Shown in pieces: positions 15,405-48,947 of a DNA stretch of 64,000 bases (position 1 is the first letter of the stretch; every line of letters begins with the position of its first letter). The position numbers and the translations under genes are program-made. The stretch is taken from assembly GCA_963743305.1 (NCBI GenBank), contig CAVUPH010000013.1, positions 160,001-224,000 of the forward strand. Direction: 5' to 3'. This DNA is from an uncultured delta proteobacterium. GTDB lineage: Bacteria > Desulfobacterota > RBG-13-43-22. The notes under the pieces are model-generated. The model saw only the letters and a list, made by a program, of their open reading frames with translations. It was not told the DNA's origin and did no database searches.

Positions 15405-15406
15405 AC

Positions 15407-16450: not shown

Positions 16451-16597
16451 CCGAGCTAAGGTAACATAGCCGGATGGAAATAACAATCAGAAACTATAGC
16501 GATCCCAATAGGTTAAATAAAGTTTAAAAAAATCTATTGATAGACTTTAAAGAAATCATTAATATTTCCGATAATTTTTTTTGGGAGATCAGTAGAC

Positions 16598-17174
16598 ATG
16601 AAAAGATTATGGTGTCTGGTGGGTATTTTGACTTGCTTCACCCTTTCCTGCAGCAGCAGCGGGAGCAGCAGCGGGAGCGGGGGGAATATTATGGGCAGCA
16701 GCACAACCTATAAAAAGGAAGACTTGGCCGGGACCTGGAATTACCTGGCGAGACAGCAGGGAGGTTCGAACAGTTGCAGCGGCACGATGACCTTCGATCA
16801 GAATCTCCACCTGACCGGAATCAGCAACAGTTGCTGCACTAGGGGTCAGATGATTAGCAGCGATATGGAATTTTGGATCTGGGACTATGGGTTCGTCAAG
16901 GGGCGCAATTACGCCTGGTGTTCCGATCCGAGCATGCTCATGAAGTATGCCATGAACTTCCAGGGGTTGGATAAAAGAAGACCTCGCCGGGTTGCTGGAT
17001 GTCCATGTAAGCCATCAGGACGGCGACCCCTATACCCGTTTTGATATCACCATGACCAGCCAGGCTCCGGTACCCGTAACTCCTCCCCCGATTGATCCGG
17101 GAATCAACCCCGCGCTACAAGGCAAAAAGCCGGTCCGGACAGCCGGTCTGTCGACGGTCCCTTCGAAAAAGTAG
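16598..17174 (+). CDS. Putative lipoprotein, split by a frameshift near 16975
   Basis: Lipobox FTLSC, Ser/Gly linker, DLAGTW; coding continues in another frame (KEDLAGLLDVHV...RFDITMT, Pro-rich tail) to stop 17174. Confidence 0.6.
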
Positions 17175-17180
17175 CGGAAG

Positions 17181-20100
17181 TCAGGCCGGAATTACCCGGC
17201 GGAGATCCGGGTTTTTTCCTCCTGAACCCTGCACAGTAAAATTCCTGAACCAGGTTACCGAATCCGCTTTTGTCCAGAGACCGGGATGCCCTTTTAAGGG
17301 GGTGGCCGTCTCATAGGTCAAAATCGGATCTTCATCCAGATACCCCGTTATGGCCCGACCGTTTATTTTCACCTTCAAGGCGTACCAGCGATCGGATTCG
17401 ATTTTCTTTGGACTCGCCGCCCGATTAAACCGTCGGTGATTTTCATATTCAAAAAGAACCAGATTGTCCTCCAGGGCGTTCAGACGCCAGACAAAATAAT
17501 TGCCGAGGCTTCGAAGGCCGAAGGCGATTCCCCCGGCCCGATCGATATGGCCGCCGGTAGCGATCACTTCCACCTGAATCGTCCCTTCTTCCAGCTCAGT
17601 GTCTCTGGCTATAATCAAGGGGAAATAGTAGTAAGCTTCCATCCGGTCTAAAAAATCCTGGAGCCGGGGACCCGTCACTTTTCCCAGCAGTTTGGCCAGT
17701 CCGGTGGAAATTCGGAATCCGGCTCGGCTGCCGTCCTGGAGAATCGCCGGGACCCCTTCGAATTCCTTCTCCTCCCAATTACCCTCTTGAATATAAAAAC
17801 CGGGGAGTTGGTCCTGCCGGTCGCGGGAAAGAAAATCGTAGTCCCCCTGGAAAAAGCGATCGGCCAGGCGTTCCACCTCTTCGGGTCGGTTCAGGGCCAT
17901 GTCCAGCAGGCGGGTAGAGGCCAGTAGCCGGCCCAGTTGGTCCAGTTTGGCTTCGAGAGGTTTCCGGTCAAACCCGGTCAGGGCGGCCTCCAGGAGGTCA
18001 CCCTGGACCGATACTTCGAAACCCAGCCGTTTCAGGACCAGGTCAAGAAAGAGGACCCGGAGCGACCGGCCGAGAAAATTACCGGCTCCCCCGGAAAACC
18101 GCAGGGAAATGTAATTCTGACTTCCCTGGTCCCCGCAGAGCGTATCCAAATTGGCAAAATGGTAGCCGAAGCGGGCGCTAAGGTTCAAATAATCTTTGGA
18201 CAGAAAGGCGTAACTCTCTCCGCCGGGGACCTCGCCGAACTCGGAGGTGGCGCTGGAGGCCATGAGGCTGAGAAAGCTCTTGGGGTCGAATTGAATGGTC
18301 CCTTTCCAGGTGATGCCGGGATGGGTGAAGCCTTTCCAGAGGGCCTTCATCGGTACGGACTCGATGTGGTCGGGCACGACTGTTTCGCAATCGGTCAACC
18401 CGAATTTCAATCCGCCGCCCAGGTCAATCAGGTTGAGGATCAGGGGGATTCCGGTCTTCAGCCTTACGGAGATGGTGTGATTATCGAGGGAGTCTCCCAA
18501 CCCGAACATTTCTTTCATGGCCAGTTCGTGGGTGAAGCGGATCAGGTCATGGATGGTCCGGCAGCCCTGCGGGGAGAAGGACGGGGACTGGGGATCGGTC
18601 AGTGAGAGGGGTGAGATAGTATCCAAGAGGTCCCGCAGCCTTCGGCTGACCGGGCTGTCCAAAAAAGGCCGGCCGGCCAAAGTCCTGAGAGACGGCCGGG
18701 CCTCATCCAATCCCTCGTAGACGGTCGCCGAGTCGGCATCCAGGGTAACCGGGGTCCCCTGGGGGATGGTTGTGGAGGCTCCCCTGGCCCCCACGATCAA
18801 AGGGATGGCGAATTCCCGGGCTACCGAGGCCAGATGGCTGGTAACACTTCCCATTTCCGTGACCAGGCCGTTGACCCGCCCGGCCAGGCGGGCATATTTC
18901 GGGGAAGCGGTCGGGGCCACGAGGATAACCCCCTCTGGAATGGAGGACAGTTCGTCCTCCCCTTTAAGGACCCAGGCCGGGCCGGTCGCCACCCCGGGAG
19001 AAGCGGTTCTGGCCGCCGGAAAAAATGACCGGCAGATCAGGTGTGGCCTCGGGGGCCAGGGTTTTTTCCCCGGATTCCAGGAAATGGAGCGGCCGGGACT
19101 GGAGTAGGAATAGTTTTCCCTCGAGATCCTGGGCCCACTCCACATCCTGGGGGCGCCCGAAAAATGTTTCCAGCCGCAACCCGTAGTCCGCCAGGCGCAA
19201 CACCGTTTCATCCGTCAGGGCCGGTTGTTCCCATTCGGTTTCTGGGACTTCCTCAATCCCGGTTCCGCCCTCCGGAAGTCCCACCAGACGCCGCTTTTTC
19301 CGGGAAATGGTCCGGGATACTACCGTCCGCTTTTGACGGTCCACTCCGAAGGAATCCGGCACCGTCTGCCCGCTGACCAGTTCCTCCCCCAGGCCCCAGA
19401 CAGCAGACACCTCCAGCCGATCGGCCTCCGGATCGGAAAGGTCCCTGGTGTACATCACCCCGCTGGATTTCGGGCGAACCATGACCAACCCGGCCACGGC
19501 CATGGGCAGATCTGCATCTTCCAGACCCCGCTGCCAGCGGTACCAGATGGCTCGAGGAGAATATTTACCGGCCAGAACGGTTTTATAGGCCTCCAGGAGG
19601 TTGTCCCGACGGACGTTCAGCACCGTGGTAAATTGACCGGCAAAGCTGGCTTCCGTGTCCTCTCCAATGGCGCTGCTCCGCATGGATATTGAAACGTTCG
19701 GCTCGGTCCGATTTTCCAGGGAGCCATAGGCCTGGAGAATCGCCGAGGCAAGGGCGGCCGGCATTGGGCTGTTCCGGATTTTGTCCTGCAGGGTCAGGCT
19801 GACGGCATCCAGATCGGCGGCATCCTCCGGATCCAGGTGGAAAAGCTTTTCTGTTATCGTGGCTTCCAGGCCGTTTTCCGACAGGAAATAACGGGCCCCG
19901 TCGGCCGTTACGGCAAACCCGTCCGGGACCGGCAGGCCCAGTTCCTTTTTTATAAGCCCCAGGTTTCCGGCTTTCGCCCCGACCAGCCCGAGTTGGTCGG
20001 CGTCGATCTCATCCAGGGAGAGGATATAAACGTCAGCCGAAGAAACCCGGGGAAGGGCCAGCGGTTTTTCGACTTCTCCCCTGATCCGGTTGAAAACCGC

Positions 20101-20379
20101 TTCCAGGTCGGTGAATCTATCCCCGACCAGTTCTTGGAAGGTCTGCAGCAAGCCCTCCGCCGCGGTTAACAGGGCCTGGGCCTTTTCCCGGACTCTGGCC
20201 GAGGTAAAGGGGCGGCCGCTGAAGTGCATCTGTTCCAACTCGGCCAGCAGGCCGAGGGAGGTATGATTGAAGTCCAGGAATTCCTTGAACCGGCGGTAGC
20301 GATCCACCTGGCGGCCGTCCTGATTGACCAGCAGGGTGCAGACATCCGGTTTGGAAAAAAATTTGAAAAGATTTTTCAT
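17181..20379 (-). CDS. PEP/pyruvate-binding (PPDK_N) + phosphohistidine swivel domain protein with C-terminal DUF1080-like domain; one frameshift near 19011
   Basis: GAKAGNLG, VPDGFAVT, RSSAIGED..ASFAGQF, SGVMYT, QDVEWA, LLQSRP; after the shift TASPGVATG, GSVTSHLASVARE, VTLDA; C-terminal GGIAF..YFVWRLNALEDN..GLWTKADS. Confidence 0.8.
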
Positions 20380-20453
20380 GTCTTATTCTTCCAGTGATGG
20401 AAACCCAGTCATTCCGATTTCATTCCGGTATGTTCAGGATGTATCTAAGTGAT

Positions 20454-21764
20454 TTAAATTATACCCAACAGTCTTCCTAAAAGTCCAATGGCTCCAGCCG
20501 AAATGATTACCGTGATCATCCCCACGCGGAGCCATTGCAGGGCGACGAAGGAAGCAAGGCCTATGACTATTCCAAACCAATTGACTTCACCAGGTGCCGG
20601 AAAGAGGACCTGGATTCCGAACCAGACAGCCAGATTGAGAACCACCCCGACGACCGCGGCGGTGATGGCCGAGAGGACGGCGGATAGTCTTTTATTTCCT
20701 CTAAATTTCTCTATGTAGGGGCCTCCTAACATGATGAATAAGAAAGAGGGGAGGAAGGTAAAATACGTGGCGATCAGGGAGCCGATGAGCCCGGCCCAGA
20801 TTGGATTTAAAGCTCCCGGATTATTCCATCCCGCCATGAAACCGATAAACTGGACCACCATGATTAAAGGGCCGGGAGTGGTTTCAGCCAACCCCAGCCC
20901 GTCAATCATCTGGGGGCCGGTCAACCAGGCAAATTGCTCCACCCCGGCCTGGGCGATGTAGGCTAAGACCGCGTACGCACCGCCAAAGGTTAGAAAAGCG
21001 GCCTTGGTAAAGAACAATCCCTCGGTGACAAAGACAGGATTTGGAATTAAGATCAGCCCTCCCATGGGGATAATCCAGAGCGTCAGAAACACCAGAATTA
21101 GAATAATACTCCGTTTCATGGAGGGTTCGATATGGCAAGGGAGGTCTATCTCACAGTATTGGACATAAGCCTCCTCAGAATCGCCATCCTTTTCCTTAAT
21201 GACGTCGAATTTCTTAGGAAGGTAAAGCCTTCCTAAGAATCCTGTCAACCCGGCCCCCAGGACGATGACAGGGAAGGGGACCTTAAAGAAGAAAATCGTG
21301 ATGAAGGCGACAGCCGCCAGGGCTATCAGGGTCTCATTTTTTAAGGCCTTCTGGGCAATCTTAATGACGGCGGCGGCCACAATGGCCAGGACGGCCGGTT
21401 TGAGGCCGCTGAAGACCGCGGCGATCCAGGAGATGTTCCCATAAACGCCATAAACCAGGCTGAGGCCGAAAAGGATAAAGATGGAGGGGATGACAAAAAA
21501 ACTTCCTGCCACCACACCCCCCGGTATTTTATGCAGCAGCCACCCTATATAGATGGCCAACTGCTTGGCTTCCGGGCCCGGCAGCAGCATGCAGTAATTG
21601 AGGGCCTGGAGGAACCGGGTGTTGGAGATCCAATTCCTTTTTTCCACCAGTTCCTGGTGCATGATGGCAATTTGACCGGTCGGCCCGCCGAAACTGATGA
21701 AGCCCAGCTTCAGCCAGAATTTGAAGGCTTCCCGAAAGGAAGGGTGGGGCGTCGGTTCGATCAC
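20454..21764 (-). CDS. chrA: Chromate efflux transporter (long-chain CHR)
   Basis: KLGFISFGGPTGQI, LLPGPEA, TFGGAYAVL, AETTPGP duplicated CHR motifs. Confidence 0.95.
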   Translation of the reverse strand: MIEPTPHPSFREAFKFWLKLGFISFGGPTGQIAIMHQELVEKRNWISNTRFLQALNYCMLLPGPEAKQLAIYIGWLLHKIPGGVVAGSFFVIPSIFILFGLSLVYGVYGNISWIAAVFSGLKPAVLAIVAAAVIKIAQKALKNETLIALAAVAFITIFFFKVPFPVIVLGAGLTGFLGRLYLPKKFDVIKEKDGDSEEAYVQYCEIDLPCHIEPSMKRSIILILVFLTLWIIPMGGLILIPNPVFVTEGLFFTKAAFLTFGGAYAVLAYIAQAGVEQFAWLTGPQMIDGLGLAETTPGPLIMVVQFIGFMAGWNNPGALNPIWAGLIGSLIATYFTFLPSFLFIMLGGPYIEKFRGNKRLSAVLSAITAAVVGVVLNLAVWFGIQVLFPAPGEVNWFGIVIGLASFVALQWLRVGMITVIISAGAIGLLGRLLGII

Positions 21765-21765
21765 C

Positions 21766-21834
21766 TTATTTCCCAGTAACTTTCAGATCATCAAAGTGAC
21801 TTCGGGCATCGGCCTTGGTCCAGAGCCCTATTTT
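21766..21834 (-). pseudogene. C-terminal remnant of a DUF1080-like gene
   Basis: KIGLWTKADARSHFDDLKVTGK-stop resembles HPGLWTKADSVTWFRNFTV at the end of the 17181 ORF; its stop abuts the chrA start. Confidence 0.6.
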
Positions 21835-23087
21835 GTTGATGTTTTGGGGACCGGCATATCCCGCCCCCAAACGGCGAAACCCACGGTGCCGATGATCCCA
21901 AAGACGAAGGCCATGATGAAATTCACCTCCGGGCTGATTTGCCATAGAAACGCGCCTCCCAGGGCGGCGGCGGATACAAAGACGTCTCGGATCAGGTAGT
22001 AGAGCCCGAACATGCCCGCCTGGCAGCTTTTGGGGGAGAGATCCATGATCAGGGATTTGCGGGTGGGCTCGCCGAACTCCTTGAGGCCCCGGAGGATAAA
22101 GGCCAGGACCAGCCATTCGAAGGAGCGGCTATAAAGTAAGACCAAGGGGAAAAAAGTGAAAAATACAAAGGTCGTGAGAACAAAAGGCTTCTTGTGGCTC
22201 CGATCCGCCAAGTAGGCCACCGGGATATAGACCAATACCGCCGTGGCCATCTCGATCGTCGTCAGGAGGCCGAACTGAAGGGCCGACACCGGATCGGCGA
22301 TGGTCTTCAGACACCAGACTACCACGAAGGCGTAGGGGATCTGCTCGCAGAAGCGGATCAGGATGTCGGTAATCAGGAGCCCTTTCATGGCCGGGTTCAT
22401 CAGCCGCAGTAGTCTCAGCGGATTTTTTTCCGGGGAAAGTGTGCAGGCCTCCCCCGAGGATTTCGTGGCGGACCGGTCGTCGGCGAGCAGTCTCTGTTGC
22501 AGGACCAAGGCTACCCCGGCCAGGACCAGCGCCGCCTCAAAGGCGAGACGAACCCCGTCACGTTCCCCCCAGAGGCTAATAAAGACTCCGCCGACCAATG
22601 GCCCCAGGGCCATGGGGACGCGGCGCACCAGCGAGTGCATGGTCACCCCCATGGTCCGTTTGTTTTGGGGCAGCACCCGGTACATCAGGCTCATGGTGGC
22701 CGGCAGCGAGATGGCCGACCAGGAGATGAAAAGCACCGCTCCGGCCAACACCGCCTGCCAGGCGGGGATCACGATCACCAGGGAAAAGCCCGCCATGGCC
22801 ACCAAGTTGAAAACCAGCAGGGAACGCTTGGTTCCGATGCGGTCGGCGAGGTAGCCGCCGGGAAAGCTGTAAAGGGCCGAGAGCAGGTTATCCATGGCCT
22901 GGAGCAGCCCGATGGCCAGCACGCCGCCCCCCAGGGCCATGAGGTAGATGGGCAGAAAGCGCTCGCCCATCCGCTCGCCCATCCCCACCAGCACCACCAT
23001 GGCCAGTAATCCGACGGTGCTGCGCTGCAGGGCGAGGAATCCGGTGATCCGGGCGGTGCGGGTGGAGGCGGGGTCCGGAGACGGCAT
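21828..23087 (-). CDS. MFS transporter
   Basis: Motif A GGYLADRIGTKR and repeat AYLADRSHKK; about 12 TM helices. Confidence 0.92.
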   Translation of the reverse strand: MPSPDPASTRTARITGFLALQRSTVGLLAMVVLVGMGERMGERFLPIYLMALGGGVLAIGLLQAMDNLLSALYSFPGGYLADRIGTKRSLLVFNLVAMAGFSLVIVIPAWQAVLAGAVLFISWSAISLPATMSLMYRVLPQNKRTMGVTMHSLVRRVPMALGPLVGGVFISLWGERDGVRLAFEAALVLAGVALVLQQRLLADDRSATKSSGEACTLSPEKNPLRLLRLMNPAMKGLLITDILIRFCEQIPYAFVVVWCLKTIADPVSALQFGLLTTIEMATAVLVYIPVAYLADRSHKKPFVLTTFVFFTFFPLVLLYSRSFEWLVLAFILRGLKEFGEPTRKSLIMDLSPKSCQAGMFGLYYLIRDVFVSAAALGGAFLWQISPEVNFIMAFVFGIIGTVGFAVWGRDMPVPKTSTK

Positions 23088-23090
23088 GGA

Positions 23091-24062
23091 TTATCCTTTG
23101 CGTCTTTGGAAATAAGTATACAAATTTTCATATAAACGGATGCCCTCCTCCAGGCGTTGATCGTCGTCCGGATGAGACGAGACCAGTCCGGTCAATAAGG
23201 CTCGGAAGCCGTCCGTTTCACGACGGTTGAATTTATCGTCCTTTAAGTCGATGTCGTGGACGATCTCGGCCAGCGGTACCAGACCCCGGTCCTGGAATTG
23301 GCATCGCCCGATCATCACCTCAAAAGTACACCGGTCCCCTTCGTGGGTGAATTCTCCGTCGAACAGGTCGAAACGAAGTTCCCCGGGCTGCGGGGTATAA
23401 TGGGGGCCGCGGACGAACTTGAAGACCGCTTTTGGGTCGATAAAGCGCCTGATCAACCATCCGCAGGCCAGACGATCCACAAAGAGGTTTTTCCGGGTCA
23501 CCCAGGTTTTTCCCTGCAGCCGGTCGACCTGCTCCAGACTGCCAGGCGCCGTCAAGGGCTCACCGGCAACTTGGGTTTCCAAGTTCAGGAGCAGGGCTTC
23601 CGCGGTTCCCCGTTCGGGCGTTTGAAAGAAGTCGATGGCGAAGACCTCGTCCAATCGGCGCCGCAGCCGGGAGACCCGGGCCGGTCCCTTCAGCGCCGGG
23701 TCCCTCGGGTCGTCCGGCCCGGAAGCCCGGGCCGTGAACAACTCCCGGGCCTCCCGGATAATGTTTTCGTAATCGAACCGGCGGGCGCCTTGAAAAAGGG
23801 CGATGATCTGGTCGTCAGCCAGGCCTTCCAGAAACCGCGCCTCCGAGATGGACCCCTCCCCGCCGCCCTCGACGATCTCTTTGAGTATCCAGTTCAAGTC
23901 TTCCCGTGAGTGTTCGGAAGGGGGTAAGGCATAGACCGATTGTTTTAGCGCCACGGCGCCCACCTGCTGTAACCGGCGCCAGATTTTCACCCGTAGGGCG
24001 TTGGGCTTGGGGGGAAGTTGATGGATTAAAAGCAACCACTTTTTCGAGTCATGGGGGTTCAA
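23091..24062 (-). CDS. chrB: Chromate resistance regulator ChrB
   Basis: N-terminal WLLLIHQLPPKP..RVKIWRRL; C-terminal WVTR..VDRLACGWLIRRFID, FTHEGDRCTFE, IVHDIDLKD; TTG start with AGGAG RBS. Confidence 0.92.
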   Translation of the reverse strand: MNPHDSKKWLLLIHQLPPKPNALRVKIWRRLQQVGAVALKQSVYALPPSEHSREDLNWILKEIVEGGGEGSISEARFLEGLADDQIIALFQGARRFDYENIIREARELFTARASGPDDPRDPALKGPARVSRLRRRLDEVFAIDFFQTPERGTAEALLLNLETQVAGEPLTAPGSLEQVDRLQGKTWVTRKNLFVDRLACGWLIRRFIDPKAVFKFVRGPHYTPQPGELRFDLFDGEFTHEGDRCTFEVMIGRCQFQDRGLVPLAEIVHDIDLKDDKFNRRETDGFRALLTGLVSSHPDDDQRLEEGIRLYENLYTYFQRRKG

Positions 24063-24082
24063 TAGAGACTCCTGATAACAAG

Positions 24083-24103
24083 TGTTACTTATATAATGTA
24101 ACA
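24083..24103. promoter_or_regulatory. Palindromic operator candidate upstream of chrB
   Basis: TGTTAC-TTATATAAT-GTAACA, 20 nt upstream of the chrB start. Confidence 0.5.
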
Positions 24104-24202
24104 TCAATAACAATTAGTCAAGGGTGATTCCCAGTAAGTTTTGAAATTGATTCGCAGGAGTCCGTCAATCGATGGTTTTTGAGGGGGGATTAAAAAGAGC
24201 AC

Positions 24203-30716: not shown

Positions 30717-30744
30717 GAAAGAAAAGCAAGAGCGCAGCAAGTTA

Positions 30745-30910
30745 TTAACGGTCTCATAATAGAACCGACTACCTCGAGGTTCTCTTGTCGTCATTCCCGC
30801 AGCGCTTCTGGGCGGGAATCCAGCCTCGGTCTGGCACGATTCTGGATCCCCGACAAAGACACTCGGGGATGACGGTCGGTGGTATGTACAGACAATTATG
30901 AGACCCTTAA
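30745..30910. mobile_element. MITE-like element containing a CGTC-type REP doublet
   Basis: Terminal inverted repeats ttaacggtctcataat / attatgagacccttaa (15/16); internal cgtcattcccgc..gcgggaatccag ... ctggatccccg..cggggatgacg. Confidence 0.7.
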
Positions 30911-30928
30911 TATAACAACAATATAAAT

Positions 30929-31004
30929 TCCCCGGTAGCTCAGCCGGTAGAGCGGGTGGCTGTTAACCACTTGGTCGGCGGTTCGAATCCGTCCCGGGGA
31001 GCCA
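30929..31004 (+). tRNA. tRNA-Asn (GTT)
   Basis: TCCCCGG/CCGGGGA acceptor stem, GGTGG-CTGTTAA-CCACT anticodon arm, GGTTCGAATCC, GCCA end. Confidence 0.97.
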
Positions 31005-31012
31005 TTCGACGC

Positions 31013-31050
31013 GAAAAGGGTCCCTTTATGAAACAAGGGACCCTTTTCTT
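31013..31050 (+). terminator. Intrinsic terminator after tRNA-Asn
   Basis: gaaaagggtccctt-tatgaaac-aagggacccttttctt. Confidence 0.8.
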
Positions 31051-31177: not shown

Positions 31178-31486
31178 ATGCCTGAAATTGCATGGTTTTA
31201 TATCCTCAGACTACGTTCAGGAAAATTTTCCACCGGAGCTACCACTGACCTGGAACAGCGGTTCAAGGACCATCTTTGTGGTAATGCCTGCCGAACCACC
31301 CGATTGGATCCACCGGTTGCTTTGATTCATTCAGAAGAATGTCAAACATTTAGCGATGCCAGAAAGCGAGAGGCACAGATAAAACGTTGGTCCCGGGCAA
31401 AGAAGGAATCACTAATAGCTGGTGACCTTAATAAGTTAAACCAGTTGTCCAAAACAAAGTCAAAACAAGAGGGACGTAAGGATTAG
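31178..31486 (+). CDS. GIY-YIG nuclease family protein (UPF0213-like)
   Basis: WFYILRL..GKFSTGATTDLEQRFKDH..G, ARKREAQIKRWSRAKKE.LI; second motif Tyr replaced by Ser. Confidence 0.88.
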   Translation: MPEIAWFYILRLRSGKFSTGATTDLEQRFKDHLCGNACRTTRLDPPVALIHSEECQTFSDARKREAQIKRWSRAKKESLIAGDLNKLNQLSKTKSKQEGRKD

Positions 31487-31650: not shown

Positions 31651-31685
31651 TTGACACCCTTTCTTCTTATTGTATGATATATCAT
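31651..31685 (+). promoter_or_regulatory. sigma70 promoter overlapped by a 12-bp palindromic operator candidate
   Basis: TTGACA-16 nt-TATGAT; ATGATATATCAT at 31674-31685. Confidence 0.55.
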
Positions 31686-31752
31686 CTGATGTACACTTTG
31701 TTATGAATATTGATTGGACCAAACCTCTCAGGTGCTTGAAAGGAGAGCGGCT

Positions 31753-31965
31753 TTGAGTACCCCGGTCGACATCCCCCGATTAGTCCGTGAGCTCCGAAAA
31801 CGAACGGGGCTCACCCAGGAGAAATTCGCGGCCAAGCTTGGTGTGACCTACCCAACCATCAACCGTTGGGAGAACGGTCGGGCTAAGCCGTCGCCGTTGG
31901 CCATGCAGAAGATCGATGATCTACTAGACAGCATGGGGGAGAAAGATGTTGGATTGCTGAAATGA
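31753..31965 (+). CDS. XRE-family helix-turn-helix regulator
   Basis: LRKRTGLTQEKFAAKLGVTYPTINRWENGRAKPS; AGGAG before TTG 31753. Confidence 0.9.
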   Translation: MSTPVDIPRLVRELRKRTGLTQEKFAAKLGVTYPTINRWENGRAKPSPLAMQKIDDLLDSMGEKDVGLLK

Positions 31966-32096
31966 CCTACTGGCGGTGTAAATTTGAGATGATCCGATGA
32001 CTAATTCGGGGAGAATAAGAAAATCAGCGCCAATTGAATGAAAAAATTATGTCGCCTCTTATGACGTCGAACAACTGGAAATTCGTAGAGGAGATA

Positions 32097-33302
32097 ATGA
32101 ACTACACAGATGAACAACTGGAAATACTCCTGGCAGATATCGAATCGGATCTTGCCGAGCGAAAGGAATCCTGGAAGGGTGACGCCCCGGAGACCGGACG
32201 GCAGGCCGCTTGCGCTTTTGCAAACGATTTGCCTGATCATCGACGGTCAGGGGTTCTTTTTATCGGAGCGAAGAACGATGGTTCAACCTCCCATTTGGAT
32301 ATCACAGATGAACTGTTGCGTACCCTTTCCGATATCAGGACAGATGGCAATACCCTGCCGCCACCTTCAATCGTTGTTGAAAAACGAAACCTCGGAGGAG
32401 CTGCCATGGCGGTCGTTATTGTTCTGCCTTCGGATACTCCGCCGGTCAGATATAAGGGAAGGATCTGGATTCGCACTGGGCCCCGCAGGTCTGTGGCCAC
32501 TCCCCAGGAAGAACGCATCCTGAATGAAAAGCGCCGCTACCGGGATCTCCCATTTGACATCCAGCCGCTTCCATCTTGCCCCTTGTCGGCGCTCAGTCGG
32601 ATTTTGTTCGAGCAGGAGTATTTGCCCAATGCCTTTGCCCCGGATGTGGTAGCAACAAACGAACGATCTTACGAACAGAAGCTCGCTTCGTGCCGAATGA
32701 TTGCCGCCGTAGACGATCCTGTCCCGACGATACTGGGCGTACTGGTCCTGGGCGTATCGCCACGGGATTGGATCCCCGGTGCCTATACACAATTCCTTCG
32801 GATTGCCGGAACAGAGGTTAGCGATCCGATCCAGGACGAGTCTCTTATAGACGGTGCTTTGGGACAGGTTTTACGTCGCATTGACGAAAAGATCGATTCA
32901 CATAATCGCCGCCAAGTCGACATTTCATCGGCTGATCGGGAAATTCGCACGGCTCCCTATCCGCGTGTGGCGCTTCAGCAGTTGATTCGCAATGCGGTCA
33001 TGCACCGCACCTACGAAAACACCAACGCGCCCGTCCGCGTCCATTGGTTCGACGACCGTATAGAAATCATTAATCCGGGAGGACCGTTCGGGGTGGTCAC
33101 CCGGGAAAACTTTGGCCGCCCCGGCATTACCGATTATCGGAACCCAAATCTTGCAGATGCCATGAAAGTCATGGGTTTCGTTCAGCGTTTCGGCATAGGC
33201 ATCCAGACCGCAAGGGCGGAGATGAAAAAAAATGGCAATCCCGATATCGAATTCCAAATTGAACCGTTGACCGTGCTCGCTACGGTCAGGAGGCGCCCAT
33301 GA
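32097..33302 (+). CDS. AlbA_2 (Schlafen-like) + HATPase_c_4 domain protein
   Basis: ESDLAERKE, CAFAND..GVLFIGAKNDG; YPRVALQQLIRNAVMHRTY, FDDRIEIINPGG, YRNPNLA, VQRFGIGI; GAGGAG RBS. Confidence 0.85.
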   Translation: MNYTDEQLEILLADIESDLAERKESWKGDAPETGRQAACAFANDLPDHRRSGVLFIGAKNDGSTSHLDITDELLRTLSDIRTDGNTLPPPSIVVEKRNLGGAAMAVVIVLPSDTPPVRYKGRIWIRTGPRRSVATPQEERILNEKRRYRDLPFDIQPLPSCPLSALSRILFEQEYLPNAFAPDVVATNERSYEQKLASCRMIAAVDDPVPTILGVLVLGVSPRDWIPGAYTQFLRIAGTEVSDPIQDESLIDGALGQVLRRIDEKIDSHNRRQVDISSADREIRTAPYPRVALQQLIRNAVMHRTYENTNAPVRVHWFDDRIEIINPGGPFGVVTRENFGRPGITDYRNPNLADAMKVMGFVQRFGIGIQTARAEMKKNGNPDIEFQIEPLTVLATVRRRP

Positions 33303-34321
33303 GTGTTCCGGTACTGACTTTTTTCAATAACAAAGGCGGTGTGGGCAAAACATCCCTCGTGTATCACCTGGCCTGGATGTTTTCCGAACTCGACCATACG
33401 GTTGTCGCTGTTGATCTTGATGCCCAAGCCAATTTGACCGCAGCCTATCTCGATGAAGACGAGCTTGAGCAACTGTGGGAAAACGTAAAAGAGCCAACAA
33501 CGATTTACCGGGCCATAGAACCGCTCACCCAGGTAGGGGATATAGTTAAGCCCCATGTCGAAAAAGTGACGCAAGGCCTATATTTAATTCCCGGGGATGT
33601 GGCATTGGCATCATTTGAGGATTTATTGTCCGAATCTTGGCCTAAGAGCATGGGTGATCCCAATTTGTATCGCTATTTTCGTATTCTGACGGCGTTCTGG
33701 CAAGTCGCACAAATGACGGCCCAACAGGTAGGCGCCGATATCATCCTGATGGATGTCGGTCCCAACCTCGGGGCTATTAACCGGTCGGCCTTAATCGCTT
33801 CCGATTATGTTGCTATCCCCTTGGGAGCTGATCTTTTTTCTCTCCAGGGATTAATAAACCTGGGCCCGACGCTTCGTTCGTGGCGCGAAGGCTGGAAAAA
33901 ACGGATAGATAATTGGAAATCCCCCGAATTTGACCTTCCTCAGGGGCGCATGAAACCGCTTGGTTATATCGTACAGCAACATAGTGTCCGGCTCAGTCGA
34001 CCGGTCAAGGCCTATGACAAATGGGTTAACCGTATCCCGGCTGTTTATCATGAAGCGGTGCTCCAGAATTCCACCACCGCGGCTACCCCAACGCAAGATG
34101 AGGAATGCCTGGCCACATTGAAACATTTTCGCAGCCTGATACCGATGGGGCAGGAAGCGCGCAAACCCATATTTCACCTAACATCCGCCGATGGCGCCAT
34201 TGGAAGTCACGCCCAGGCAGTCCAAGAGGCTTACAAAGACTTTAAACTACTCATGGAAAGATTGCTCGAACGAATGGAAAAGATAACGCCCGCCCTTAGA
34301 AACCATAGCCGAAAGGTTTAG
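33299..34321 (+). CDS. Orphan ParA/Soj-family ATPase
   Basis: FFNNKGGVGKT deviant Walker A, VDLDAQANLT, MDVGPNLG; ATGA overlap with the upstream gene. Confidence 0.9.
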   Translation: MSVPVLTFFNNKGGVGKTSLVYHLAWMFSELDHTVVAVDLDAQANLTAAYLDEDELEQLWENVKEPTTIYRAIEPLTQVGDIVKPHVEKVTQGLYLIPGDVALASFEDLLSESWPKSMGDPNLYRYFRILTAFWQVAQMTAQQVGADIILMDVGPNLGAINRSALIASDYVAIPLGADLFSLQGLINLGPTLRSWREGWKKRIDNWKSPEFDLPQGRMKPLGYIVQQHSVRLSRPVKAYDKWVNRIPAVYHEAVLQNSTTAATPTQDEECLATLKHFRSLIPMGQEARKPIFHLTSADGAIGSHAQAVQEAYKDFKLLMERLLERMEKITPALRNHSRKV

Positions 34322-35391: not shown

Positions 35392-35609
35392 AATCATTCA
35401 AATAAAACGTTAATATAAGGGTTGGTATGAAAATGACCGGCAATTGTCATTCGTGGGTGCCCGCCCCCGGGCATGGGGGTTTAGTACGAAAATAGCTTTC
35501 CAATCTCAACAGCGCTCAGACCCTCCCCCTTGGGTTTTTTCATGCTTCGTGGGTGGCCGTAAGCGGCCATGGGGTTAGTGCGATATTACGGAGAATTTCA
35601 GGGGGATTA

Positions 35610-36230
35610 ATGAAGATAAAAATCGGCGTTATGGGGCATGCCGGCTCGGATTTACCGGAAAGAGAGAAACAACTAGCCTTTGAGCTGGGAATGGCCATTG
35701 CCGAACAGGATGCAATTACCATTACCGGGGCCTGTCCCGGCTACCCTTTGGAGGCGGCCAGAGGGGCGGCCAGTGGGGGCGGGCTGGTGATCGGGATCTC
35801 CCCGGGACTCAGCCTCTGGGAACACCTGCACAAATATCATTCTCCCACCGAGCATCATGATGTGCTGATCTTCACCGGCAGCGGACTCATGGGCCGAGAG
35901 GTGGTCAACATCCGCAGTTCGGATATGGTGGTCATTGTCGGGGGGAAGTCCGGGACCTTGGGGGAATTCGCCATTGCCTACGATGAGGGCAAGCTGATCG
36001 GGATCCTGATGGGCACCGGGGGCATTACCACGGAAATCAAGCACCTGGTTCGGATCGTCCGGAAAGATACCGGGTCCAAGGTCCTTTACGACCATGAACC
36101 CCGGCGGCTCATTCGACGGCTTTGGAAGTATTACCACCGGGAACATTTCAAGCATCCCTCCTGTTTTCGCGACGATCAGCAATATGCAGAAACCGACGGA
36201 GAAACCCCGGATCGGTTAAAGGAGGGATAG
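35610..36230 (+). CDS. LOG/SLOG-family (TIGR00725-like) nucleotide-binding protein
   Basis: KIGVMG, ITGACPGYP, VIGISP, TGSGLMGRE, GGKSGTLGE. Confidence 0.8.
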   Translation: MKIKIGVMGHAGSDLPEREKQLAFELGMAIAEQDAITITGACPGYPLEAARGAASGGGLVIGISPGLSLWEHLHKYHSPTEHHDVLIFTGSGLMGREVVNIRSSDMVVIVGGKSGTLGEFAIAYDEGKLIGILMGTGGITTEIKHLVRIVRKDTGSKVLYDHEPRRLIRRLWKYYHREHFKHPSCFRDDQQYAETDGETPDRLKEG

Positions 36231-43253: not shown

Positions 43254-44144
43254 TTAGCCTCTATTTAATTCTTCATCAGCACCGGCAGAAAAAGCCGGGC
43301 TGGAGTATCCCCCGGGTTCAATGGATTTTACCAGAGGCAGCAGGGGCTCGTTAAACCGACCCCCATAGCTCGCGCCTAAAATTTTTAGGTACCAGGCGGC
43401 GGCCCCTCCCGGGTTTCTTATCTGCCAGTTGTTCAGAATAAATTCCACGCGCAAACGAATAATCCCCGGGTCTTGATAGGGTGGTGGGTCGATCCAGATT
43501 GGCCGCAGCCGGTATTGATAGATCCAGGGTCTCGGCAAGAGTAATTCCAACGCCCGGTAATTGGGAATGCCGTAAAAATTGGTGATGGAGATCACGCGTC
43601 GTTCAGCCGTGCCGATGGAGCCGACATCGGATATATAGCTGTTGATGGCCCGCTTGAAGGCTTCTCCGGCGGTTAGGTTGCCGTCCTGATCCAGGTGTTT
43701 GATGATGTAGGTGGACAATTTTTCATTGTGACGGACCTCGCTCACATCCGTTCCGCTTCCGGTGCCAGTGATGATGGTATACCCGGTAGCCCCCACATAA
43801 ACCCCGACTTTCTTCTTGGCGAATTCTTCCGGAAATTCGGAATAGGTCGTTCCGGGATCCGGCGCAGGATAGAGATTGTTTCCGAAACTGGCTCCGTTGT
43901 GGCACCCGGAGGTGACGATCACGGCGTTGGGCAGGTCGTTCAGGGCGGCGGTATCCCCGCTGGTGGCGTGGTTTCCGGCTCTATACGATCCCCCGCCGGT
44001 GCTGATCGCATTGTAATCGCCATGACCTCCGAAATAGACCAAATTGTACTTGGCATTCAACTTGGCTGGCACGTCGTTGGAGTCATAGCTGTTCTGGACC
44101 AGGGCGTCATCCGTTGCCGTTGCTATAGACGGAAACCAGCCCAT
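43254..44144 (-). pseudogene. Fragment with peptidase C25 (gingipain/caspase-like) catalytic motifs
   Basis: LVYFGGHG (His), IVTSGCHNG (Cys), VYVGAT, TAGEAFKRA, FYGIP; no N-terminus or obvious RBS, abrupt C-terminus. Confidence 0.55.
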
Positions 44145-44191
44145 TCGTTATCGGGATCCGCTAAGGAGATGACCAAAAGGGCTGGCTGTTT

Positions 44192-44779
44192 TCAATCGGA
44201 ATTCGATCCGGCCCAGTCATAGGGGTTGTTGGGAGCCGCCGTGTCATGCCCAATCAGGATGAGATCAAATCTGGCCAAACCGGCGTTAGCTATGTTGTTT
44301 AAAGAAATCAATGAAGTGGCGAAGCCGTTTCCATCCAGGAGGGCTTTGAAGGCCTCAGCCGTATCGGAGTCGGTATTATAAACGAGGGCGGCGGTACGGT
44401 TTTTCTGGTAGACCTGGAAAGACTGGGAAAACGAGGCGTAGCCGGAATTCACGTCGGCAACGATGGGGTGGTCCCCCATTGAGGCATCCGGCGGAATGGT
44501 CACCGGCAGGGCAAAGGTCCCGTCCGGCCGGAGTGGATTTGAACCCAGGAAACGGCCTTGAGAAGCGAAGTCCCACCAGAGCATAACCGTATCGTTGGCT
44601 CCATATCCATCATACTTCCCGGTAGCCACCACTTGGATCCCTGGGGAACCAGAAGCGGGATTGACGGTCAGGGCATAGGCGCCCCAGGCAGGTAGCGCCG
44701 GGAAAAAGACGAAGGGGGTCGGTAGCAGGAATGCGAGCTCCACCACAAAAATTCGGATCCAAAATTTTCGATTTTTCAT
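44192..44779 (-). CDS. Secreted protein N-terminal fragment (Ig-like + alpha/beta domain), probably truncated
   Basis: GGGAGG RBS, signal peptide, LTVNPASGSPG..VTIPPDAS.GDH; ends mid-domain after FDLILIGHDT. Confidence 0.55.
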   Translation of the reverse strand: MKNRKFWIRIFVVELAFLLPTPFVFFPALPAWGAYALTVNPASGSPGIQVVATGKYDGYGANDTVMLWWDFASQGRFLGSNPLRPDGTFALPVTIPPDASMGDHPIVADVNSGYASFSQSFQVYQKNRTAALVYNTDSDTAEAFKALLDGNGFATSLISLNNIANAGLARFDLILIGHDTAAPNNPYDWAGSNSD

Positions 44780-44796
44780 GGGAGGCCTCCCTTTTA

Positions 44797-44855
44797 TTAT
44801 CCGCCGCGGAGCAGAGAGTACCGGGGGTACCCCGTATCCCGCTCCGAGCGGATAA
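44797..44855. repeat. Intergenic hairpin
   Basis: ttatccgc..cggagc / gctccg.gcggataa inverted arms. Confidence 0.5.
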
Positions 44856-44882
44856 GCTCTGCGGATTTGAGATGCCGTTTAA

Positions 44883-46924
44883 TCAATTCCTTTGAATCAA
44901 TGGTAGATACAAATTAGTGGTTGGTATTCCCCATATCCGTATCCGTATCGAGTCGGCAAAGCCGTCCTGTGGTCGTCGATAAACGGTGATGCTGTTGGTG
45001 GTCAGTGATCGCCAATAGGCGCCTACGCGGTCATCGGCGTTGTACCCCGCAGACGGCTGGGTTCCAAAATCCGCGCCGCCGAAGTAACGCTGGTTCAAAC
45101 CATTACCAGGATTGGAGTCCAAATAGTTCATATCCACCAAGTAATTTTCGAACGGCCCACCGAGATTATGGGTCAGGCTTTGGGCCGTATCCACGGCGAA
45201 GGCCACCCACCCGCTGTCGTAATCGGGCTTGGCCAGGCGCCAGATGCGGACGCGCACCTGCTCGGCATAGATGTCTTCCGGTCTCCGGTAGACGGTAATG
45301 CTTGTCGAAGTTAAAGACCTCCAGTATGCCCCTACCCGGTCATCTGCGCTCATGCCGGCGGGGGGCTGGGTCCCGAAATCAGCGCCGCCGTAATGGCGAT
45401 GGTTGACCCCGTTCCCGGCCGATCTCTGCTGCATATCCACCAAGTATTCGGCGGGGTCCCCCCCAGATCATGGGCGAGGGCGGTGGACGCATCTTTCGCC
45501 AGGGCTGTCCACCCCGAATCATAATCCGGTTTGGGCATGGACCAGATCCGAATCCGCGTCTGTTCGGCATAGGTATCCTCCGCGCGGCGAAAAACAGAAA
45601 TGCTGGCATTGGTCAAGCTGCGCCAATAAGCGCCGACCCGGTCATTGGCATTATGCCCCGGAGCCGGATTGGTCCCGAAATCGGCGCCTCCGTAATAACG
45701 ATTGTTCACCCCGTCGGCAGCACTGCCTTTGTACTGCATGTCCACCAAATAACTATTGGCATCCCCGCCGATAGTGTGCGATAGGACGGTGGCATCGCTT
45801 CCGGCAGTTATATTAACCCAGCCGCTGTCGTAGGTCGGCGACGGGATTCTCCAGGCGTTGAAAATGCGCATTCGGATCTGGGGAGCGTTAATATCCTCCG
45901 GTCGGCGATAAACGGTTACCGTTGAGTCGGTAAGGGTTCGCCAATAAGCCCCGGAACGGTCTTCGCTGCCGGTCAGGTCCATTCCTCCGTAATGGCGTTG
46001 ATTGACCCCGTAGGCGCCTGATTGAAATTGCATATCGACTATATAGTCATCAGGGTTGCCTCCGATGGCATGACTGAGGTCGATGGCCTGGTCCTGATTT
46101 ATCGCAATCCAGCCGCTGTCATACGTGGCCTTCGGCCTCTTCCAGATTCGAATACGGACTTCTTCTGCATAACTGTCATCGGCCCGACGATATACCCGCA
46201 TAGTGGTATTGTTCAGTACGTACCAATAGGCCCCAACCTGGGTATTGGGCGCGCCGGCTTTGGCCCCAAAATCGATGCCTCCGTAATACCTTTGGTTCAC
46301 CCCGCTGCCGGCGCTTCTAAATTGCATATCCACCACATAATTATCACGGTTTCCAAGAAGATTGTGGGTGACCAGTGGCGCTGGTCCGCCGGCGGCCAGT
46401 GCAATCCAACCGGAGTCATAATCCGGGGCAGCATCCACCCAAATACGGACCCTAACCTGTTCGGCAAAAGTATCTTCTGGCCGGCGATAAACAGTGATGG
46501 TGGATGTGGTCAAGGAGCGCCAGTAAGCGCCCACTCGGTCATCAGGATTTCCCAGAGTAACTTGCGTACCGAAATCATTCCCTCCATAATACCGCTGATT
46601 AATCCCGTTCCCGGCGTTTTTGAATTGCAGGTCCACGACGTAGGAGCCAGAGTTGCCGCCCAAGTTATGGGTCAGTACTTTGGCTTCATCCCGGGTAATG
46701 GTAACCCAACCGCTGTCGTACGAGGCCCCGCCGTTGTAGGCGCCTTTCAAGTTGGCCGGGTTTGCCGAAAGTTGAGGATTTGCTGCAGGGAGGGAAGAAG
46801 AATTTTTGTAGACATTTTGATCGGCTGGCTGGTACTCCGAACCAAATGAAGCGTTCCAACCGAAAACCAAAGCCAGTAATAAAGCCACTGTTAAAAAACC
46901 GAAAATAAATGATTTTTTTTGCAT
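44883..46924 (-). CDS. Secreted protein with six ~97-aa YDSGW repeats; frameshift in a G7 run (45458-45464)
   Basis: Signal peptide; repeat consensus YDSGW..H.LGG...Y.VDMQ....G.N.RYYGG.DFG....DRVGAYWRSLT...ITVYRR.ED..A..RIRIW; adding one G restores HDLGGDPAEYLVDMQ. Confidence 0.8.
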
Positions 46925-46971
46925 GGCCTGTCCTCCGGAAAGAAATTTCAAAAAGGATGAGGGCAAGAAAT

Positions 46972-46993
46972 GGGAGGGGATAAACCCCTCCCC
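46972..46993. repeat. Short REP-like hairpin
   Basis: gggagggg-ataaa-cccctccc. Confidence 0.5.
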
Positions 46994-47006
46994 GAAGGCC
47001 GTTGGA

Positions 47007-47579
47007 TTAATTATTTTGGATTATAGGCAAGGCCACCGCCCCGAAAGGAGGAATGTAATGGATTCGGGCCCCGCATAATCTTGAGGTATTGGCCGCTTGG
47101 GGCTGCCATGTCAGTTCATAAAAGCATTTTGAATCGACGGTACAGTCTGTTTCCACGGTAATATTCAATTCGGCGGTAGGAAGTTTGAGTCTTCCAATAA
47201 TCCCTACCAGGGGTATTGCGGCAAGGGTTGTGCTGGTATTGGCAAAGGGGTCGTATTTTAATAAAGCGAGTGTACTAAATGGCGGCGTGAGCGGAAAGAC
47301 TAGTGGGGTAAATTCAAAAAAATAAAATTCCAGGCGTTTGATCAGAGAGCCCCTCGGTAATAGGACAGGAAAGCTGAAACCATCAAGCCCCCCAGTGTTC
47401 CAAATACAACCCTCACCACTGTTATAACTCTGGGTTGAACTCGTAGGAGTAAAAGAGGATCCGAGGACATTCAGATATTGTGTGGGAGGTTGGGCAGAAA
47501 CGACGGGTGTGAGTAATAGGGTTAATAGGAAAAAGATTCCAAAAAGTTGAGTGATAGACCGATAGTTTTTCTTCATCAC
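47007..47579 (-). CDS. Secreted hypothetical protein
   Basis: GGAGG RBS, signal peptide MKKNYR..VVSA, FPVLLPRGS.I, C-terminal ALPIIQNN; AT-richer than its neighbours. Confidence 0.7.
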   Translation of the reverse strand: MMKKNYRSITQLFGIFFLLTLLLTPVVSAQPPTQYLNVLGSSFTPTSSTQSYNSGEGCIWNTGGLDGFSFPVLLPRGSLIKRLEFYFFEFTPLVFPLTPPFSTLALLKYDPFANTSTTLAAIPLVGIIGRLKLPTAELNITVETDCTVDSKCFYELTWQPQAANTSRLCGARIHYIPPFGAVALPIIQNN

Positions 47580-47816
47580 TTTTTCCTCCATTTCTAAAAG
47601 GTTTCTATTAAATCCTACCTTCCTACTATGAAGTCTTTTAGTTGGCGCTGCTCTTACCACCCAAATTCCCCTATTTACTACAAATAAAAAGGTATAAAGT
47701 CAACGGGAAAAAGGAGGCAGAGGACCATATCCTATTGGCTAGAGATCAAGACCGAAACTACCATGGACAAAGTCAAGACAGGATTAAAATCCGATTATTA
47801 CTTCCCGGAAAAATGG

Positions 47817-48947
47817 TTAAAACAGTCGATCCATCCGGAAATACTGCAATAAGCCGATAAAGGCCGAGGAACTCAACGGGTCCCCCTTCATCCCGAACAG
47901 GTGCCCCGGGCAGGCGCAATCCGAGGCGCCGAAGCCGATAATATCCCAGTCGGCGATGGCCCGCATCCGTTCGGCTATCTGACATTCCAGATCTTCCGAG
48001 GAACGGACCGGCAGGGCGGCGATGTATTCCGTTTCCTCCCGCAGGTAATCGATATGCCAAAAATTGTTTTTCCTCAAGCGGCGATGTCTTTCCATTCGCT
48101 GGGTCAGATTTTTCATGGCCGAGCCGACATAGACGTAGTAACCGGCCGGGAACGTTTGCCGATTTTCCCGGCGGCCGAATTCCAGATTCCTTTTGCGGTT
48201 GAGCTTCAGAATCAGCAGGTAGCTTCCCCGGTCCCGAGCCTCCCTATGAATCAGCTCCCAGGGGATTTCCAATCGCTTGACCCGTTCGCCGAGAGAAAAA
48301 TCCGGTTTCCACTCCACCGCCAGCGCGATGATTTCCACCCGGTTTCGACAGGCCAGAAAGGTTTGGGCGAAAAACAGATCCGTGTGATAATCGGGGAGGA
48401 AGAAATCCGCCTTCAGCCAGTGGACGATGAACAGTACGGCGGTCTTCCGTCCGCGGTCGCTCAATTCGGTCAATTCCCGCAAATGCCGGGTCCCACGCTC
48501 CGTGACCGCGTCCGGGAACATGGCTGTTCTCTCCCCGAACAGCGTGCAGGACTTCACCTCGACCAGCCATTCATTTTTCCGGCGTTCCACCAGGAGATCG
48601 AAACGGGAATGATCGATGCGAATCTCCCGGCCGATCACCCGGGCCCCTTCCCAGCCGGGGACCTTTCCTTGATCGATCAAGTGGCCGGCCACCTCGTTGG
48701 TCCGGTGGGTGTGGAGGAAGATCGGAACCCCCTCCCGTTCCACCGCCAACACGGTAAAGGCGTTTTTTCGGGTAGGGGAGGGCGGTTCTTTGGCAATATA
48801 CACGGTGACCCCCGGCAACAGGAGCTCCTGGAGCCGACCGGGATTGGGCAGAAAGGCCTGGATGATACTTGCCCCCAGGCGGCAGCGGATTAGAAAACGG
48901 TTAGGCCGGTCGATGAATTGGGCTGGTAGAGGAGTGGCGGGGGGCAT
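47817..48947 (-). CDS. sfsA: DNA/RNA nuclease SfsA fused to a DUF123 (GIY-YIG-like) domain
   Basis: FIDRPNRF, PNPGRLQEL, SRFDLL, VEVKSCTL, FPDAVTERGTRHL; then GSYLL, GYYVYVGSA, WHIDYL, GFGASDCAC..HLF. Confidence 0.9.
   Translation of the reverse strand: MPPATPLPAQFIDRPNRFLIRCRLGASIIQAFLPNPGRLQELLLPGVTVYIAKEPPSPTRKNAFTVLAVEREGVPIFLHTHRTNEVAGHLIDQGKVPGWEGARVIGREIRIDHSRFDLLVERRKNEWLVEVKSCTLFGERTAMFPDAVTERGTRHLRELTELSDRGRKTAVLFIVHWLKADFFLPDYHTDLFFAQTFLACRNRVEIIALAVEWKPDFSLGERVKRLEIPWELIHREARDRGSYLLILKLNRKRNLEFGRRENRQTFPAGYYVYVGSAMKNLTQRMERHRRLRKNNFWHIDYLREETEYIAALPVRSSEDLECQIAERMRAIADWDIIGFGASDCACPGHLFGMKGDPLSSSAFIGLLQYFRMDRLF

Follow-up and report, generated by a model that had tools for sequence, protein, structure and literature searches.

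The 64,000-nt stretch of DNA analyzed here (the window) comes from an uncultured delta proteobacterium and carries at 31651-34321, all on the + strand, a block composed of a promoter-like site, an XRE-type regulator gene, a Schlafen-GHKL gene and a parA gene. The last two form a conserved, co-inherited unit. Core gene 1 (32097-33302, +) encodes a 401-amino-acid (aa) Schlafen(AlbA_2)-GHKL protein of pSlfn1 architecture, a predicted tRNase effector, and core gene 2 (33299-34321, +) a 340-aa orphan ParA-clade (SIMIBI) ATPase (AAA_31, E = 5e-27), the predicted sensor or switch. The stop codon of the first and the start codon of the second overlap in ATGA (33299-33302, +), a sign of translational coupling which the original prediction for this block had correctly recognized. 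Kuzmenko et al. have named the SLFN-GHKL unit Schlatpase and describe ATP-driven tetramers and tRNA cleavage (bioRxiv 10.64898/2026.05.29.728809), and their name is used below.

Relatives were collected by a scan of GTDB, which gave at least 566 Schlatpase relatives; the best 80 (51-86% identity) were used, and the locus counts refer to these. Two of the 80 lack downstream sequence, leaving 78 testable loci. ParA directly follows the Schlatpase in 69 of these (88%), and the conservation check proposed together with the original prediction thus came out in its favor. The genes overlap by 4 nt in 64 of the 69 paired loci (57 ATGA, 7 GTGA). The pair is spread over 16 named phyla, with nine cyanobacterial and six planctomycete loci among the 69, and the lone archaeal label belongs to a 2-kb contig of a metagenome-assembled genome (MAG). 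Pairwise identities among the Schlatpases correlate with those among the ParAs (r = 0.59; none of 1000 permutations was as high), a correlation which would arise from shared transfer alone. Six comparisons gave nonsynonymous divergence (dN) of 0.09-0.20 and synonymous divergence (dS) from 0.66 to saturated; judged by these substitution patterns, both genes are under purifying selection. No conserved third open reading frame (ORF) was found in 65 downstream and 67 upstream regions besides neighbors of the restriction/modification (R-M), Hma, uvrA and DUF1016 types, though rapidly evolving partners may escape such a search.

Long proteins containing ParA numbered 26, consisting of 14 Schlatpase-ParA fusions, 11 proteins with a PD-(D/E)xK-like C-terminal domain and one fusion to HerA. 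Nine of the Schlatpase-ParA fusions are clean, and five contain garbled stretches resembling frameshifts. On a FastTree phylogeny the nine clean fusions need seven origins, at least five of which are forced by well-supported branches; P0246 and P0258 are possible artefacts, having retained an internal Met where the two parts join. From the fusions and the translational coupling we infer physical contact between Schlatpase and ParA. A paired 68-row complex prediction for the two proteins scored 0.01 against a mark of 0.32, which is not evidence either way. The ParA proteins with an added C-terminal domain of about 340 aa (P0247-P0251, P0255, P0259, P0261 and P0263-P0265) include several with a degenerate Walker A; their PD-(D/E)xK-like motif was seen by eye and has no Pfam match. 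The ParA-HerA fusion is P0260.

The domain assignment of the Schlatpase made in the original prediction was confirmed by Pfam matches to SLFN_AlbA_2 (E = 1.5e-9) and HATPase_c_4 (E = 1.5e-17), and Foldseek matched its structure to DIP2311 (3lmm, E = 4e-19), the SLFN11 N-domain and histidine-kinase CA domains. The Schlafen active-site motif E16-x4-E21-x-K23 (32142-32165, +), as defined in PMC13056530, is intact, and among 79 aligned locus proteins E16 is kept in 78, E21 in 78 and K23 in 77. The Schlafen box, CAFAND (32211-32228, +), is the equivalent of SAFAN and near-invariant in two alignments, the box having also served as a search pattern. The AlphaFold2 (AF2) model (pLDDT 95) terminates in two strands without the C-terminal winged helix, as had been claimed; the implied peculiarity did not hold, as such absence is common (63 of 77 full-length representatives have at most 425 aa). 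Fusions of Schlafen with HisKinase only are reported at 34%, versus 19.2% for those with a helix-turn-helix (HTH), in the text of PMC13056530.

The AF2 model of ParA (pLDDT 94) resembles DIP2308 (3pg5) best in Foldseek, followed by Soj/ParA. The matches of the two window proteins, DIP2311 and DIP2308, come from one Corynebacterium genome, in which their locus tags differ by three; both are uncharacterized structural-genomics targets, and no paper on their function was found in a literature search. The window ParA has a deviant Walker A, K12-G-G-V-G-K17-T18 (33332-33352, +), preceded by N11 and followed by D39-x-D41-x-Q43. K12, K17, T18, D39, D41 and Q43 are invariant across 58 ParAs chosen by a Walker A regular expression, and the Walker A motif is at least 90% conserved across 68 alignment rows. 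The PriB1/ConB1 marks (N11, V15, K17 and D39-x-D41-x-Q43) are present and only weakly discriminating, as Soj shares them. A basic cluster of R231, R234, K237, K241, R245, K275, R278, R288 and K289 (33989-34165, +), each position being K or R in at least 82% of the 68 rows, is a candidate DNA-binding face. It falls where other ParAs contact DNA, and as hidden Markov model alignments to Soj ended near residue 204, short of the cluster, the face is a putative one. In this clade, column identity in the C-terminal region is 0.71 for residues 226-250 and 0.81 for residues 271-305, and residues 251-270 are variable (0.40).

ParA relatives of 29-30% identity overlap SIR2 genes, and solo relatives are carried by plasmids and prophages with no effector gene overlapping them. 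Solo relatives of 27-28% identity lie in a Pf1 prophage and in the immunity region of P22-like phages (L088:2567-3520; L089:2489-3562) and resemble the STP lineages described in the preprint of Li, Burroughs and Aravind (bioRxiv 10.64898/2026.10.19.760177). Among plasmids and phages no homologue above 36% identity was found, the phage search having covered ParA alone.

Nine testable loci lack ParA, and seven of them keep an intact Schlatpase ORF with the E/E/K residues, which argues against ParA as an obligatory adjacent antitoxin and favors an activator. The slot after the GHKL domain is modular, holding a winged HTH (wHTH) in relatives of about 500 aa, SAVED in P0278 and P0297, and ParA in the fusions; the Schlatpase of one ParA-less locus (L040, 58% identity) has a wHTH-like tail by eye. 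An ORF overlapping the Schlatpase of L028 was considered as a replacement partner and rejected, as it resembles an unrelated secreted myxobacterial protein. The Schlafen-GHKL-SAVED proteins P0278 and P0297 are 41-48% identical to the window protein, have Gln in the N-box and are candidate cyclic-nucleotide-activated Schlafen effectors.

GHKL ATPases use a Glu in the N-box as general base, and histidine kinases carry an amide there. In hydrolytic GHKL domains of the RzAgo type this Glu precedes the N-box Asn by four residues; the window protein instead reads Q295-x3-N299 (32979-32993, +), with Gln where distant relatives carry the inferred catalytic Glu. Gln occupies this position in 119 of the 119 top homologues and, among representatives, in 14 of 14 at 55-75% identity, 23 of 31 at 45-55% and 23 of 75 below 45%, where 51 of the 75 have Glu. 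A count of Gln295 in 79 of 79 loci was dropped as circular, the search pattern having required Gln. In RzAgo (E314/N318), the E314A substitution is reported to abolish hydrolysis and severely cut defense (bioRxiv 10.64898/2026.05.29.728809). Gln at the putative catalytic position suggests that the GHKL domain serves mainly as an ATP-binding scaffold which is switched by ParA.

In 15 of the 69 paired loci, R-M-type or defense genes abut the pair, a count without a matched control. Four loci have the pair between hmaA and hmaB (L011 and L060 complete, L073 and L081 at contig edges), and hmaA or hmaB fragments, either remnants or contig-edge pieces, adjoin it in L005, L006, L009, L026 and L055. 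In L079 its neighbors are brxC on one side and pglX on the other; in L022 and L042 it immediately precedes type III methylases, and it adjoins a C5 methylase in L066, a type I fragment in L023 and an HKD-Snf2 locus in L059. These neighbors were identified in 195 of 552 large flanking ORFs scanned in the main batches (92 by Pfam, 103 by PADLOC) and in a selected set. The remaining neighbors are mostly housekeeping genes; in one cyanobacterial clade (L058, L061, L064, L065 and L066) the pair lies 30-105 bp 3' of uvrA, and downstream of it are lexA in L048 and a Y-family polymerase in L037. Payne et al. report seven of nine Hma-embedded cassettes to be antiviral (bioRxiv 10.1101/2024.01.29.577857). 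Co-inheritance of the pair, its fusions and its place in defense operons of relatives make a sensor-effector defense module the best reading, as the original prediction had proposed.

The novelty envisaged in that prediction held only with regard to the PADLOC models. In PADLOC-DB 2.0.0 (2023) no named system, HEC, PDC and PARIS included, gave a full-length match, and the Ago models match the Schlatpase part only. In print, the pairing had been listed by Li, Burroughs and Aravind, whose computational preprint on ParA-effector systems has SIR2-coupled ParA as subtype (ii) and the Schlafen pairing as subtype (iii), the latter treated in one list entry and a remark on multicellular taxa (bioRxiv 10.64898/2026.10.19.760177). 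By its sequence features the window pair belongs to this computationally predicted kind, in the Schlafen subtype: it couples a ParA without ParB to a Schlafen-HisKinase/GHKL gene, it bears the PriB1/ConB1 marks, and its ParA relatives couple to SIR2, nuclease-like and HerA effectors. Unlike the wHTH given by Li et al., the upstream gene in the window encodes an XRE protein. They describe C-terminal extensions of ParA as rapidly evolving, a statement which may apply on a wider scale than this clade, where residues 251-270 vary and the stretches on either side are conserved. The fusions, the interchange with SAVED or wHTH, the GHKL Gln and the Hma/BREX embedding go unmentioned in the consulted sections of the preprint. 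The C-terminal slot swap, the Gln of the clade and the ParA-less loci are additions made here, though the supplements of the preprint may hold them, and the surprise is limited since the pairing had already been predicted.

Among characterized Schlafens, the SLFN-pAgo system shares SLFN with a PF13749 GHKL domain, the E-x4-(D/E)-x-K motif and the SAFAN box, whereas the window protein has no Argonaute core, is 401 aa long, has a separate ParA as proposed sensor and replaces the RzAgo Glu by Gln. Among prokaryotic Schlafens, Schlafen-GHKL proteins make up the largest group, with 58.6% of 103,533 (bioRxiv 10.64898/2026.05.29.728809), and the window protein shares its domain architecture with pSlfn1, at 34% the most frequent pSlfn class in the work of Perez Taboada et al. 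(Nat Microbiol 2026, PMC13056530). The Hma-embedded candidates of Payne et al. and the BREX/BR Schlafens are similar in that relatives of the pair lie between hmaA and hmaB or brxC and pglX, but the window copy lies outside such an operon and no HEC or PDC model covers the pair. BREX/BR auxiliaries are described as Schlafen-HisKinase-wHTH proteins in a main text in which "ParA" does not occur as a whole word (PMC12839542), and a further antiphage Schlafen has been reported (PMC13552941). In contrast to ParABS and effector-ParAB systems no operonic ParB was found, and unlike in ParA-HeH no conserved small partner gene was found beside ParA.

The pair is reasonably likely to be a horizontally mobile abortive-infection module of two genes with ParA as the activator of a tRNase, as read from its sequence and distribution. 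The module is real and conserved, and it is probably defensive; that ParA gates the nuclease, and the direction of the gating, we infer. The Schlatpase would be a latent tRNA/rRNA endonuclease, prokaryotic Schlafens being described as tRNase effectors (PMC13056530; bioRxiv 10.64898/2026.05.29.728809), and its ATP-bound GHKL domain would drive oligomerization into a two-lobed Schlafen cleft, as has been demonstrated for SLFN-pAgo. ParA would take the sensor position as an ATP-sandwiched dimer binding DNA via its basic face, and could detect invader DNA or the failure of host DNA-methylation defenses. Once activated, it would license assembly of the active nuclease, by which translation would stop and infection abort. 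The Gln-bearing GHKL domain would then act mainly as an ATP-binding scaffold, with the hydrolysis-driven switch belonging to ParA. Strong conservation across phyla suggests that the trigger may itself be conserved, such as DNA or a mimic of it, and not a phage protein that evolves fast.

A more specific form, in which ParA is an activating sensor in an interchangeable slot, GHKL has given up hydrolysis and the module guards Hma, BREX and type III R-M systems, is doubtful. Here the non-specific DNA-binding face of ParA would serve as bait for DNA mimics from phages, or else would report unrestricted invader DNA. PARIS (AriA-AriB) and the PrrC-type guards of R-M systems comprise ABC ATPases with TOPRIM or HEPN nucleases. 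The window pair would be alike by function, an ATPase with a tRNA nuclease as second line beside DNA-modification defenses, but consists of a SIMIBI ParA and a Schlafen and is not homologous. If correct, guarding would place the pair beside PARIS as an analogue assembled from a chromosome-partition ATPase and a Schlafen tRNase, and would explain why the commonest prokaryotic Schlafen class seemed inactive when tested. How Schlafen-GHKL proteins without a fused sensor are activated is the question on which this cassette bears, and being compact, conserved and equipped with its own putative promoter, it offers a test for a partition ATPase turned immune sensor, be it activator or restrainer.

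Several points weigh against the switched-tRNase reading. No experimental test of the pair was found in the literature, subscription papers lying mostly outside the coverage. Both pSlfn1 (HisKinase-type) constructs of PMC13056530, which may or may not have carried a ParA, gave no defense in E. coli; the available text of that article mentions no ParA partner. In 54 of the 69 paired loci no R-M-type gene was found abutting the pair, again without a matched control, and in the window itself the pair is flanked by housekeeping genes. A ParA elsewhere in the genome might serve the ParA-less Schlatpases, and a single-base error at the 4-nt overlap can mimic a fusion. Gln295 was equated with RzAgo E314 by the E-x3-N spacing and the family consensus, and Gln could equally mark a weakened enzyme instead of a division of labor. 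As a marker of ParA coupling, Gln was rejected, since distant fusions retain Glu and ParA-less loci retain Gln.

The roles may also be reversed, with ParA as the first-line effector that coats or sequesters invader DNA while restraining the nuclease, and Schlafen suicide as the backup once ParA is overcome. Such a model was put forward for the system class by Li, Burroughs and Aravind, and it is in keeping with the solo ParA relatives of plasmids and prophages, with the stand-alone ParA-like GiPD474, which protects against phage (PMC12724215), and with translational coupling, which suits matched synthesis. It is possible, if improbable, given that seven intact Schlatpases have no adjacent ParA, that SAVED or wHTH can take the place of ParA, that fusions fix a 1:1 ratio and make release by dissociation harder, and that the C-terminal region of ParA, except for residues 251-270, is well conserved in this clade. 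An addiction module of toxin-antitoxin type that stabilizes islands, any antiphage effect being incidental, would fit the patchy distribution across phyla and the loci L005, L006 and L009, in which the pair is intact but the adjacent Hma genes are reduced to fragments. The toxin-first gene order, the intact ParA-less copies, the very high conservation of both proteins and their recurrent fusion nevertheless make it very unlikely.

Embedding in Hma and BREX operons likewise argues against a translation brake coupled to stress or DNA damage rather than to invaders, which is quite unlikely despite uvrA immediately upstream in five cyanobacterial loci, the downstream lexA and Y-family polymerase, and the roughly 30% of pSlfn genes for which PMC13056530 reports no known defense neighbor; the five uvrA loci belong to one clade and thus count as one event. 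The ParA fold, the Soj-like matches and database annotations like "chromosome partitioning protein" or "RecG" would suit an ordinary partition or positioning ParA beside an unrelated "RecG-like regulator". This is scarcely credible and largely refuted by the co-occurrence of the pair in 88% of loci. No ParB was detected in the window, nor did the 92 nearest large ORFs scanned in related loci include one, and in BLAST the window ParA scores 33 bits against a ParAB-type ParA but 139-585 bits against effector-coupled relatives.

Upstream of the core, the window encodes a 70-aa XRE/Cro-type HTH protein (31753-31965, +; HTH_3, E = 2.5e-15), a local accessory regulator outside the conserved core. 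Its start codon is TTG, preceded by GAAAGGAG, and its end lies 131 bp from the Schlafen-GHKL ORF; no terminator-like site was found in this gap, which makes one transcript plausible. A sigma70-like promoter, TTGACA-16-TATGAT (31651-31678, +), matches 11 of 12 consensus positions and rests on the consensus match only; two promoter-like sites were counted against a mean of 3.9 in shuffled sequence and thus show no excess. A perfect 12-bp palindrome (31674-31685) covers the -10 box and is a candidate XRE operator, suggestive rather than striking because the window holds 25 perfect 12-nt palindromes. Promoter, palindrome and regulator are thus present as originally described, but the proposed autoregulated module of three genes was not borne out by relatives: an HTH_3 ORF lies directly upstream in just 1 of 74 loci (L072), which rules out XRE as a conserved member, and a tRNA occurs in the fetched flanks of 7 of 80. 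As a conserved operator the palindrome was rejected, none of 84 loci containing it, though the absence of the XRE gene from those loci makes for a weak test. Small ORFs within 350 bp upstream of the 74 loci numbered 138, with one HTH_3 (L072) and one HTH_17 (L009) among them.

Within the loci, the XRE protein is closest to the HTH at the N-terminus of the Hma helicases encoded upstream of the pair in L060 (45% over 53 aa) and L081. Of 31 matches, three relatives on cyanobacterial plasmids were inspected; one stands first in a DUF87(HerA)-NurA operon, and the other two precede hypothetical genes. The window copy shares a marginal 60-nt leader similarity with L006, L005 and L011. Its XRE may be left over from an Hma-type island; helicase or methylase remnants of Hma were searched for beside it by tblastn and none was found. 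Probably, XRE is a captured regulator that represses the operon locally together with the palindrome.

GC content is slightly low (0.514 versus 0.547), 6% of equal-length segments being equally low, and GC at third codon positions (GC3) is 0.56/0.53, versus 0.68-0.77 across eight flanking genes. The AT-richness noted by eye is thus slight overall and clear at third positions, which is consistent with foreign origin. The lack of parB, replicon and integrase was upheld, as no ParB, integrase or replication protein was detected by Pfam (E ≤ 1e-7) in 72 further window ORFs and six local ORFs. The next window gene begins 146 bp after parA, and a SLOG cluster-4 protein is encoded at 35553-36230, 1.2 kb 3' of parA.

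The tRNA said to adjoin the block is a tRNA-Asn(GTT) (30929-31004, +) with a terminator-like hairpin at 31013-31048, and it is context only. It does lie nearby, 647 bp upstream, but a GIY-YIG ORF missed in the original prediction intervenes. As an integration site the tRNA was discarded, since no attR-like or other att-like repeat of it was found. Of the seven loci with a tRNA, two have it no more than about 200 bp from ParA; tRNAs are often missing from MAG contigs. The GIY-YIG ORF (102 aa; 31178-31486, +; Pfam E = 1.8e-14) is a neighboring element outside the module, with a GC3 of 0.40, flanking 20-bp direct repeats (31072 and 31522) and inverted arms at 31003/31495, and no homologue was found across the 80 relative loci. 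The segment 31072-31541 looks like a small repeat-bounded mobile cassette. Upstream of the tRNA, a 170-nt element (30743-30912) has 18-nt terminal inverted repeats and a folding z of -3.8, matches no Rfam family and is possibly similar to repetitive extragenic palindromes (REP) or miniature inverted-repeat transposable elements (MITE).

Elsewhere in the window, at 43257-48947, ORFs from 43257 to 47660 without a Pfam match (E ≤ 1e-7) are followed by a GC dip at 47-48 kb and an SfsA-DUF123 fusion. dnaX and ybaB-recR are ordinarily neighbors. Here they are separated by a reverse-strand block of about 9.5 kb (14694-24113), which holds a low-molecular-weight phosphatase, chrA, a major facilitator superfamily transporter, chrB and a phosphoenolpyruvate synthase/pyruvate phosphate dikinase split over two overlapping ORFs (17184-19211 and 18967-20379).

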